DNA of 40,467 nucleotides. Source: an uncultured Clostridia bacterium (lineage in GTDB: Bacteria; Bacillota; Clostridia; TANB77; CAG-508). Of this stretch, positions 34,224 through 35,860 are shown in pieces. The DNA lies in the NCBI GenBank assembly GCA_947628015.1, contig CANQYG010000001.1, forward strand, positions 1 to 40,467, written 5' to 3'. Both the position numbers and the translations under genes were made by a program. Within the stretch, counting starts at the first letter, position 1; each line of letters opens with the position of its first letter. The notes beneath the pieces were generated by a model. It was given only the letters and a program-made list of their open reading frames with translations, was not told the DNA's origin and ran no database searches.

Positions 34224-34616
34224 TTAATCTAGTATATTATTAAATACCTGTATAACTAGTGCAAATATTCCTGTTGCTCCATATACTAAAACTACAGATA
34301 TTACATAGTAAATTAATTTTTGCTTTAATTGAGCTTTTTCATTTGCTCCTGCTATCATATATTTAACACCCATAATTAAACCTACAACAACTAATACAAT
34401 AGTTGCAATTCCAACTAATGTTATTCCTACTGGAACAAATGCATTTATTGCATCATCTGTAGTTATTGGTGCACCTTGACTACCTTTATCAATAAAGCCT
34501 TTTCCAGCACTAAATATATCATCTAAGCTGAAACCAAACACATTTGAGCAAGTTCCTAATAAAGTTAAAGCTATCATTGTTAAAATTAGTACTTTTCTTA
34601 CTTTAGTAAATTTCAT
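34224..34616 (-). CDS. VirB2/TrbC-like pilin paralogue 3
   Basis: 130 aa. A signal peptide is followed by two hydrophobic helices separated by the short charged loop YMIAGANEKAQLKQK. It is paralogous to the two genes upstream. Confidence 0.6.
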   Translation of the reverse strand: MKFTKVRKVLILTMIALTLLGTCSNVFGFSLDDIFSAGKGFIDKGSQGAPITTDDAINAFVPVGITLVGIATIVLVVVGLIMGVKYMIAGANEKAQLKQKLIYYVISVVLVYGATGIFALVIQVFNNILD

Positions 34617-34655
34617 TATTTCCTCCCGATATATGGATATAATAACCCATTTTTA

Positions 34656-34694
34656 CTTGTATAATATTATACAAGCTTAAGCTTAAATTTTCAA
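34656..34694 (-). promoter_or_regulatory. sigma-A promoter of pilin paralogue 3 with a 20-bp perfect palindrome over the -10
   Basis: Minus strand reads TTGAAA (34694-34689), a 17-nt spacer atttaagcttaagcttg, then TATAAT (34671-34666). The palindrome cttgtataatattatacaag spans 34656-34675 and the adjacent palindrome aagcttaagctt spans 34673-34684. Confidence 0.6.
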
Positions 34695-34780
34695 TAGTTT
34701 TACTAAAATTTAATATATTTAATATATTTGTAATAGTATAATTTTTTCAATTATTTATATTTATTTTTTTGCTTTAATAA

Positions 34781-34819
34781 AAACAAAAAAAGATTTAGAA
34801 TTTATAACTTTCTAAATCT
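34781..34819 (-). terminator. rho-independent terminator after pilin paralogue 2
   Basis: agatttagaa (34791-34800) pairs with ttctaaatct (34810-34819), a 10-bp stem. On the minus strand it is followed by TTTTTTTGTTTT. Confidence 0.7.
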
Positions 34820-34827
34820 CTTTATAT

Positions 34828-35238
34828 TTAAAATAAATCATTTAAAGCAATACTTCCTATTATTTTAATAAATGAGCCTATTGCAAATAATATTAATGCT
34901 CCTACTGCATAACTAACCAACTCTTTTTTTAGTTCTGCCTTTGCCTCTGGAGCCTTTAACATAAATTGAACTCCTTTATATACTAATATTATTACTGCTA
35001 CACCATAGCATAGATACTGAACTAATCCTATAATCTTTCCACCAACAGTATCATAAGTAGTTCCTTTATCTCCTTCATATATTTCTGATAAATCTTCTTT
35101 TTTTATATCTATATCAGCAATTTTTAAGTCTGGACTTTCTTGACTATAACTAATTTGTTCTGCTTTTGAAACTGTATTTGTTAATACTACTAAAGTAAAA
35201 ACTAGTAGCATTATTTTTATTATTTGCTTTACTTTCAT
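34828..35238 (-). CDS. VirB2/TrbC-like pilin paralogue 2
   Basis: 136 aa with a signal peptide (VSKAEQ). Two helices flank FMLKAPEAKAELKKE. Confidence 0.6.
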   Translation of the reverse strand: MKVKQIIKIMLLVFTLVVLTNTVSKAEQISYSQESPDLKIADIDIKKEDLSEIYEGDKGTTYDTVGGKIIGLVQYLCYGVAVIILVYKGVQFMLKAPEAKAELKKELVSYAVGALILFAIGSFIKIIGSIALNDLF

Positions 35239-35321
35239 TATTTTTCTCCTTTTCTTAAATGTACAAATTTAAGCTAGTATTTATAAATATTTTTTACAAT
35301 AAAAATATGTTCATTACATTA

Positions 35322-35350
35322 ATTATACATTCTATCGAGAAATCTTGCAA
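35322..35350 (-). promoter_or_regulatory. sigma-A promoter of pilin paralogue 2
   Basis: Minus strand reads TTGCAA (35350-35345), a 17-nt spacer, then TATAAT (35327-35322). Confidence 0.55.
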
Positions 35351-35386
35351 TAGATTTTTATAAATTTTACTTACCATATCACCAAG

Positions 35387-35414
35387 AAAAAAATGAGTGA
35401 AAAGTTTCACCCAT
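35387..35414 (-). terminator. rho-independent terminator after pilin paralogue 1
   Basis: Minus strand ATGGGTGAA-ACTT-TTCACTCAT forms a 9-bp stem with one G-U pair, followed by TTTTTTT. Confidence 0.7.
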
Positions 35415-35440
35415 CTTTCTTTTTAATTCTTTATTAATTA

Positions 35441-35800
35441 TTAGCTTACTACAGTATCTTTTGCAACATTCTTTATTAAGTTTAATAATAAACCAGCTGC
35501 AAATACTAATATAGCACCTACAACATATATAACTGCACTCTTTTTAATTTCTGCTTTAGCATCTGGTGCAGCTGTCATAAACTTAATACCTAATACAACA
35601 ATTAAAACAACTGCTGCTGCATAACAAATAAATTGAATTATACCAATTACATTTCCTACTGTAGTTTGTAATCCAGTATTTGTTGGATTTTTTCCACTTG
35701 GTATTACAATATCATCTGCAAATACCATTGATACTGATGATAATACAGTAGCAATTATAAGTAATGCAACAACTATCTTTGACATTCTCTTTATAGACAT
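35441..35800 (-). CDS. VirB2/TrbC-like pilin paralogue 1
   Basis: The likely start is ATG 35800 (MSIKRMSKIVVALL...) after AAGGAGG; the track starts at 35860. It has a signal peptide (MVFADD) and two helices flanking FMTAAPDAKAEIKKS. Confidence 0.6.
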   Translation of the reverse strand: MSIKRMSKIVVALLIIATVLSSVSMVFADDIVIPSGKNPTNTGLQTTVGNVIGIIQFICYAAAVVLIVVLGIKFMTAAPDAKAEIKKSAVIYVVGAILVFAAGLLLNLIKNVAKDTVVS

Positions 35801-35831
35801 AGTTATCCTCCTTTTGTTATTTCTTACCTTA

Positions 35832-35860
35832 ATTATAGAATATATTATCAAAATTGTCAA
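35832..35860 (-). promoter_or_regulatory. perfect-consensus sigma-A promoter of pilin paralogue 1
   Basis: Minus strand reads TTGACA (35860-35855), a 17-nt spacer attttgataatatattc, then TATAAT (35837-35832). Confidence 0.7.

Follow-up and report, generated by a model that had tools for sequence, protein, structure and literature searches.

Three ancient VirB2-type pilin paralogues at the head of a chromosomal, vertically inherited type IV secretion locus in the clostridial order TANB77

The pilins VirB2 of Agrobacterium, TrbC of RP4 and TraA of F have a signal peptide and two hydrophobic helices joined by a short charged loop. They are encoded by single genes directly upstream of virB3 and virB4 homologues, on mobile elements of diderm hosts that also carry VirB5, VirB7-10, a coupling protein and a relaxase. 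In a 2025 nomenclature review, VirB2 and VirB5 are described as not found in Gram-positive type IV secretion systems (T4SSs), with Patescibacteria as the single monoderm exception (PMC12857230). A survey of Patescibacteria reported 441 arrays of 2-11 VirB2-like genes beside PrgI, TrsD, VirB4 and VirB6, described the Gram-positive T4SS classes as being without virB2 homologues or major pilin genes, and left the origin of the Patescibacteria pilins unsettled (PMC12102498). In Ca. Southlakia epibionticum, an essential series of pilin genes belongs to a T4SS without relaxase or coupling protein (Wang et al., 2023; PMC10633639). Here, we analyze three tandem pilin genes, named pil1, pil2 and pil3, of an uncultured bacterium from the order TANB77 (class Clostridia, family CAG-508). 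They lie in a stretch of 40,467 nucleotides with 26% GC (the window), which is contig 1 (CANQYG010000001.1) of a 1.55-Mb, 83%-complete metagenome-assembled genome (MAG; GCA_947628015.1). The trio heads a vertically inherited chromosomal T4SS locus that is near-universal in TANB77.

All three genes are on the reverse strand and encode proteins of 119 aa (pil1, 35441..35800), 136 aa (pil2, 34828..35238) and 130 aa (pil3, 34224..34616). The original prediction, made from this DNA without database searches, had proposed VirB2-like pilins with a common signal peptide and two-helix plan, and the open reading frames (ORFs), the hydropathy profiles and the AlphaFold2 models of pil1 and pil3 agree with it. 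The proteins can be aligned over their full length at 26-35% identity and have a common architecture, in which an N-terminal signal-like helix and a variable segment precede two hydrophobic helices joined by a short Lys-rich loop. The charged-loop sequences quoted in that prediction are present in all three, and the conserved loop reads P-[DE]-x-K-A-E-[IL]-K-K. In pil1 the signal peptide covers residues ~1-28 (…MVFA/DD), the variable segment residues 29-45 and the hairpin residues 43-76 and 79-118; the variable exposed segment of pil2 (~27-65) is the longest of the trio. The pil1 model (predicted local distance difference test, pLDDT, 72) consists of a signal helix and a long hairpin, with helices at 3-28, 43-76 and 79-118. 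The pil3 model (pLDDT 80, hairpin >90) has helices at 4-24, 31-46, 53-88 and 91-129, and thus an additional short helix in the mature N-terminus. Hydropathy stretches are consistent with the modeled helices. Each pilin would be exported by Sec and cleaved after a small-residue motif (…VFA/D, …SKA/E and …VFG/F, respectively). The start of pil1 was placed at the ATG behind GGAGGA (ribosome-binding site, RBS, 35806-35811), which is the start common to orthologues. A TTG start giving a 139-aa pil1 (to 35860) is unlikely.

Family searches lead to the same assignment. With hmmscan, the PF18895 (T4SS_pilin) profile scored 30.9 bits on pil1, 25.8 on pil2 and 33.8 on pil3 (cut-off 26.6 bits). The PF04956 (TrbC/VirB2) profile scored 27.8 bits on pil1 (cut-off 27.9 bits), with residues 4-108 corresponding to positions 6-97 of the 98 in the profile. 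Most pil1 homologues in a large protein collection match both PF18895 and PF04956. Among the orthologues, PF18895 was found at E<=1e-3 in 24/25 for pil2 and 25/25 for pil3, and PF04956 in 11/25 and 15/25, respectively. Profiles of pil1 and pil3 matched each other with 98.6% probability (E 1.3e-15). The three genes are VirB2/TrbC-class pilin paralogues, and the membership in VirB2/TrbC-like families that had been predicted for them is borne out by PF18895 on the trio (marginally on pil2) and by PF04956 on pil1.

A one-genome-per-species scan provided 59 related loci from rabbit, sheep, mouse and human gut MAGs, including Clostridium sp. CAG:793 and CAG:571; CAG-793 has been placed in family CAG-508, order TANB77 (PMC13744907). 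A maximum likelihood tree of 155 pilin sequences, with supports from the Shimodaira-Hasegawa-like approximate likelihood ratio test (SH-aLRT), resolves three orthogroups: pil1 (36 rows, SH-aLRT 90), pil2 (32 rows, SH-aLRT 99) and pil3 (39 rows, SH-aLRT 97), the last being the deepest-branching. In 31 species there are three (sometimes four) pilin genes, in the order pil1-pil2-pil3. Three supported orthogroups in a fixed order mean that the triplication is old and that each copy has been kept; the trio consists of ancient paralogues and not of recent copies. Among 28 species the mean pairwise identity is 52% for pil1, the most conserved, 38% for pil2 and 40% for pil3. The conserved positions cluster in the two-helix hairpin, on whose preservation in homologues the original prediction had staked its case, and the variable ones in the mature N-terminus and the C-terminal tail. 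The mature N-terminal regions, already noted there as diverged, are unrelated among the paralogues.

The surroundings of the trio are equally stable. Relatives whose pil1 homologues are 50-70% identical have the gene order S21-M16-M16-Spo0E-like-pil1-pil2-pil3-PrgI-like-TrsD-like-VirB4, and the genes further upstream differ among them. This combination of constant gene order and differing distant flanks indicates a vertically inherited chromosomal site and not an island. The PrgI-like, TrsD-like and VirB4 genes are also present in 37-38 of the 59 loci. In an order-wide search, the pilin family was found in 284/301 TANB77 genomes (260/272 of those of high quality), from 43/43 genera and 5 families, with a modal copy number of three per genome in genomes of 0.9-2.2 Mb. 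It was found in 0/144 genomes from other orders of the class (~60 other families). The distribution is order-wide and, among the genomes sampled, order-restricted. In a few loci pil1 is split from pil2 and pil3 by inserted genes, which encode proteins of 269 and 393 aa in one relative (L011, 10553-12547) and span 7-9 kb in two others (L053, L058).

The three genes are set apart by their expression signals, from which expression levels and transcript ends are predicted here. The pil1 promoter (35832..35860, reverse strand) is a 12/12 match, TTGACA-17-TATAAT, with an A-rich tract just upstream, and lies ~30 nt ahead of a consensus Shine-Dalgarno sequence. The pil1 terminator (35383..35418, reverse strand) is a hairpin of 10-13 bp followed by U7 (-16.7 kcal/mol, z -3.4). 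The pil2 promoter (TTGCAA-17-TATAAT, 10/12; 35322..35350, reverse strand) is matched by a terminator at 34782..34821 (reverse strand) with an AT-rich hairpin of 11-12 bp, U7 and a second small hairpin (-15.9 kcal/mol, z -4.1). The promoter of pil3 (TTGAAA-17-TATAAT, 11/12; 34666..34694, reverse strand) is also that of the machinery operon, of which pil3 is the first gene. By folding, no terminator was found 3' of pil3 in the window, where a 19-nt gap holds the RBS of the next gene. A simple terminator scanner missed both hairpins, the stems of which are AT-rich, and folding recovered both. The three promoters with 17-nt spacers and the strong terminators after the first two genes, as originally predicted, were thus recovered by promoter scanning and folding.

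DNA of 26% GC is rich in weak promoter-like sites, of which 30 were seen where shuffled sequences gave an expected 24.7, which is no excess. In random 200-nt windows of related loci a 12/12 match occurred in 0.7% and a match of at least 11/12 in 2.2%. Comparison across species (31 with enough sequence, 33 orthologues for pil3, terminators counted at -7 kcal/mol or stronger) gave the following counts. A perfect 12/12 promoter precedes pil1 in 27/31 species, and a terminator follows it in 25/31. For pil2 a promoter of 10-11/12 was found in 27/31 and a terminator in 13/31, and for pil3 an 11/12 promoter in 16/33 orthologues and a terminator in 0/33. Chance does not explain this recurrence of promoters and terminators. 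The only other recurrent perfect promoter in the related loci is the one before rpsU (ribosomal protein S21). When pil1 promoters are aligned, the hexamers and the 17-nt spacing are invariant and the upstream A-tract is kept, while the letters of the spacer vary, so that it is the promoter elements as such that are under selection. The pil2-pil3-machinery block lies in inverted orientation with respect to pil1 in seven loci; the five pil1 genes scored there all have a 12/12 promoter and a predicted terminator, which shows the autonomy of pil1. Among the closest species, pil1 showed the lowest synonymous divergence of the genes compared (a small sample), which fits codon selection in a gene predicted to be highly expressed. 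The dN/dS ratio is 0.2-0.56 for the pilins versus 0.07 for VirB4, with no gene-wide positive selection. The proposal that each gene is a separate high-expression unit therefore holds in full for pil1 alone; the signals of pil2 are weaker and less well conserved, and pil3 shares its promoter with the machinery.

Two further features touch these promoters. A 20-bp perfect palindrome, CTTGTATAATATTATACAAG, at 34656-34675 is centered on the -10 box of the pil3/operon promoter and could be an operator or merely a bidirectional -10. A Spo0E-like ORF of 52 aa (35857-36015, reverse strand; PF09388, 33.9 bits) has its stop overlapping the pil1 -35 box; a Spo0E-like gene lies between the M16 peptidase genes and pil1 in most of the relatives examined (L008-L010 and L012-L014, uncalled in L011).

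The machinery begins immediately after the pilins. The gene for a PrgI/VirB3-like membrane protein (33782..34204, reverse strand; PF12666, 23.2 bits; position conserved in relatives) starts 19 nt past pil3. It is followed on the same strand by that of a TrsD-like ('TraC-like') anchored protein of 401 aa (32605..33810), for which PF26593 was matched by orthologues and not by the window protein itself. The gene for the motor, a VirB4-family ATPase (30615..32582, reverse strand; NF045971 conju_CD1110 at 222 bits, TIGR00929, PF19044), is two genes beyond the PrgI-like one. Further downstream, the same strand encodes three paralogous polytopic VirB6-like proteins (388 aa, 752 aa and one split into 254+474 aa), an NlpC/P60 hydrolase and several large unknown proteins. 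Domains of relaxases, coupling proteins and recombinases were not found from 16.9 to 36 kb of the window. Other contigs of the genome carry VirD4-like genes (C20, C125 and C40), a relaxase gene (C46) and a second VirB4 (C21), 25% identical to the first, which probably represent at least one ordinary conjugative element. Contigs C19 and C62 carry the genome's T2SSE-family ATPases. The nearest named relatives of the VirB4 are from Firmicutes, at 35-43% identity (Clostridium plasmids, Heliorestis and a Peptostreptococcaceae MAG). Among the nearest VirB4 relatives from outside TANB77 are plasmid genes 41-43% identical to it, and the closest plasmid matches are Clostridium botulinum plasmids. A tblastn search with pil1 against 72,556 plasmids gave no match.

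Several observations concern the rest of this block. The split VirB6-like gene consists of overlapping ORFs in different frames (23878-24642 and 22662-24086, reverse strand), and tblastn aligns the two halves to successive portions of the intact paralogues. The split could reflect a frameshift, a pseudogene or an assembly error. The VirB6-like paralogues also have weak PF18895 matches (26522-26719 and 24166-24339, reverse strand, also 29843-30592) and a motif, …GIRMAISTVADVKAKYKKML…, which resembles the pilin helix-loop-helix. A pilin module inside these paralogues was rejected, with hhalign probabilities of 0.5% and 7.9%. A D-Ala-D-Ala carboxypeptidase gene (Peptidase_S11; 15477-16742, reverse strand) is at the far end of the T4SS block; in one relative (L014, 9862-11139) it is between pil3 and the PrgI-like gene, so that it possibly moves with the locus. 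The only other perfect TTGACA-17-TATAAT of the window (~10952-10980, reverse strand) precedes an ORF for a 79-aa Cro/XRE-like helix-turn-helix protein (10669-10908, reverse strand). Near the latter are a tyrosine integrase gene and two tRNA genes (positions listed 13847-15004, forward strand, and 15097-15281, reverse strand), and the left part of the window looks like it is occupied by an integrated phage or other element.

Among described systems, the pilin arrays of Patescibacteria, such as SEML1_0006-0019 of Ca. Southlakia epibionticum ML1, come closest. Both occur in monoderm hosts with small genomes, as part of a chromosomal T4SS with no recognizable relaxase or coupling protein in the cluster. 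In both, tandem divergent PF18895/PF04956 pilin genes, with paralogues ~25-40% identical, lie beside genes for PrgI/VirB3, a TrsD-like protein, VirB4, VirB6 and wall hydrolases. However, the TANB77 host is an order of Bacillota (Clostridia), and instead of 2-11 variable copies it has a fixed set of three ancient orthogroups whose promoters and terminators are graded. The VirB4 comparison covered sequences other than those of Patescibacteria and gave Firmicutes as the nearest named relatives. Relative to VirB2, TrbC and TraA, whose protein plan and gene position it repeats, the TANB77 locus differs in its three paralogues, its monoderm envelope and its lack of DNA-processing genes.

Amplified VirB2 genes are also known from diderm pathogens, in which the tandem variable copies of Bartonella Trw trwL and Anaplasma virB2 are linked to host-cell adhesion and immune evasion (PMC12102498, PMC12857230). 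Bartonella Trw resembles the TANB77 locus in having several tandem variable VirB2 genes in a T4SS without coupling protein, and is thought to build variant surface pili. The TANB77 copies, in contrast, are old one-to-one orthogroups with distinct conserved expression signals. An array of variant pilins of the Trw type, arising by recent amplification and variable in copy number, was therefore rejected (orthogroup SH-aLRT 90-99, modal copy number 3).

A 'conserved pilin' of TANB77 has been published, but it belongs to a Tad/CpaF cluster with CpaB, TadZ, CpaE, CpaF/TadA and TadB/C (Kim et al., 2024; PMC11680825). That cluster encodes seven pilin-like proteins (932-938), most with one transmembrane helix (PMC11680825). 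The two loci are alike as order-wide surface-filament loci, each with several small, pilin-like genes under predicted promoters of their own. They are nevertheless different machines at different sites, the trio being of the two-helix VirB2 type and next to VirB4. Identity of the trio with Tad/type IVc pilins was rejected because its proteins have a signal peptide and two helices, and its genes adjoin VirB4 rather than CpaF/TadA and TadB/C. In the main text of Kim et al. (2024), the terms T4SS, 'type IV secretion', VirB2 and TrbC are all absent (PMC11680825).

Another instructive case is the Clostridium beijerinckii plasmid NZ_CP107023.1, which encodes a VirB4 41% identical to that of TANB77. 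Its gene order is a pilin-shaped gene of 136 aa, a small PrgI-like gene, a TrsD-like gene, VirB4, a large membrane protein and a hydrolase. It differs in having only one pilin-shaped gene, in being plasmid-borne and in a TraM-recognition coupling protein nearby. The pilin-shaped gene could not be linked to the family by Pfam or hhalign and counts as the same topology only. Since this plasmid has one pilin-shaped gene in the same position, together with a coupling protein, it points to a possible origin of the TANB77 locus from a plasmid-type system that was domesticated and had its pilin gene triplicated.

Taking these data together, we consider it probable that the trio provides one bulk pilin (pil1, the proposed major subunit) and two lower-dose accessory pilins of a non-conjugative T4SS. 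After Sec export and cleavage, the hairpin proteins would be parked in the membrane with the Lys-rich loop between the helices. The conserved signals suggest a dosage ladder among the three genes. The monocistronic pil1 unit, with its perfect sigma-A promoter, A-tract, consensus Shine-Dalgarno sequence and own terminator, would supply the bulk subunit. The pil2 product would be made at an intermediate level, from its own transcript here and from one joined to the pil3 transcript in many species. Co-transcription of pil3 with the machine would yield it in proportion to the machine, which would suit a pilin with a priming, adaptor or base role. If the system works as VirB2 systems do, the machine, driven by VirB4, would then pull the hairpins from the membrane and polymerize them into a filament or tube. 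This would cross the thick wall at openings made by the NlpC/P60 enzyme, with the variable N-terminal segments and C-terminal tails facing outward. The system lacks linked DNA-processing genes and for that reason is unlikely to be conjugative. A role in contact-dependent adhesion to other cells, or exchange with them, appears more likely, along the lines suggested for the T4SS of Patescibacteria.

The most serious alternative, though an unlikely one in our judgment, is that the three proteins are VirB2 homologues without an extracellular fiber, acting only as parts of a T4SS channel that spans membrane and wall. VirB2 is required for substrate transfer even in Gram-negative systems without a pilus, and the TANB77 proteins are almost wholly hydrophobic hairpin. 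The weak pilin-like motifs within the VirB6-like paralogues could be read in the same way, and the described Gram-positive T4SSs rely on adhesins instead of pili (PMC12102498, PMC12857230). The signals around pil1 argue otherwise. A perfect promoter kept in 27/31 species, together with a dedicated terminator, implies a subunit excess far above the machine, which suits a polymer better than a stoichiometric channel part. In addition, the variable exposed termini suggest surface exposure.

The original prediction spoke of alternative or co-assembled subunits, and the one-to-one orthogroups favor the latter, in the form of non-redundant, co-operating subunits. It is doubtful that the paralogues are instead interchangeable variants for antigenic or target-range variation, from which different promoters would select different pilus types according to condition. 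Such a reading would make sense of exposed N-terminal segments that are unrelated among paralogues and variable among species, of pilin dN/dS values far above that of VirB4, of the 4-8 copies in some genomes of the order, and of separate promoters, for one of which the palindrome could serve as operator. However, these copies are not lineage-specific recent amplifications, since they form three ancient orthogroups in fixed order with a modal number of 3. The strongly conserved hairpin of pil1, the hard-wiring of pil3 to the machinery operon and dN/dS ratios <1 without gene-wide positive selection also speak against it. Interchangeable variants are thus the less favored part of the original proposal.

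That the locus is an ordinary integrative conjugative element, with pilins for mating-pair formation and its relaxase and coupling protein encoded elsewhere (as the VirD4-like and relaxase genes on other contigs, the plasmid relatives of VirB4 and the C. beijerinckii plasmid might suggest), is very improbable and was rejected on synteny and distribution, because the same chromosomal neighbors recur across species with pilins only ~50% identical, the family occurs in nearly all genomes sampled from the order and in none of those from the other orders sampled, integrase, relaxase and coupling protein genes were not found in the locus, pil1 is without plasmid matches, and the second VirB4 on C21 accounts for a separate mobile element.

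Some results weigh against the model of one bulk and two accessory pilins. Only about half of the species conserve the signals of pil2 and pil3, and the three steps of the ladder, clear in this genome, are therefore not general. In hmmscan pil2 was 0.8 bits below the PF18895 cut-off, although it was above it in a genome search (26.8 bits). A Foldseek search of the PDB with the pil1 and pil3 models gave no match at E<1, by a method that separates simple helical hairpins poorly, and among PDB sequences a profile search picked up no pilin, only a chance match to photosystem II. The fold assignment consequently rests on the Pfam profiles and the topology. As the MAG is incomplete (83%) and encodes coupling proteins and a relaxase on other contigs, a DNA-transfer module acting in trans is conceivable. 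Finally, TANB77 is uncultured (PMC11680825), and the proposed filament is a prediction from genes.

The presence of a fixed VirB2-type trio in an order of Clostridia contradicts the generalization that Gram-positive T4SSs lack VirB2 outside Patescibacteria, and TANB77 offers a Bacillota system for comparison on the question of where the Patescibacteria pilins came from. A conserved top-strength promoter and a terminator around one of the paralogues turn the distinction between major and minor pilins into a concrete, testable model. TANB77 is also the gut clade most consistently linked to the response to immune-checkpoint therapy, and one of the proteins of its Tad pilus is immunostimulatory (PMC11680825). 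A further surface filament protein from this order, and a probably abundant one, is therefore of practical interest. Tentatively, one might go further and propose that TANB77 builds the first VirB2 pilus in Bacillota, with one major and two minor pilins, by means of a domesticated, non-conjugative T4SS that, like the one of Patescibacteria, serves an obligate contact-dependent relationship with other cells. If this were true, such a pilus, together with the Tad pilus, would help to account for the resistance to cultivation of these gut bacteria, which have small genomes and are of clinical note.

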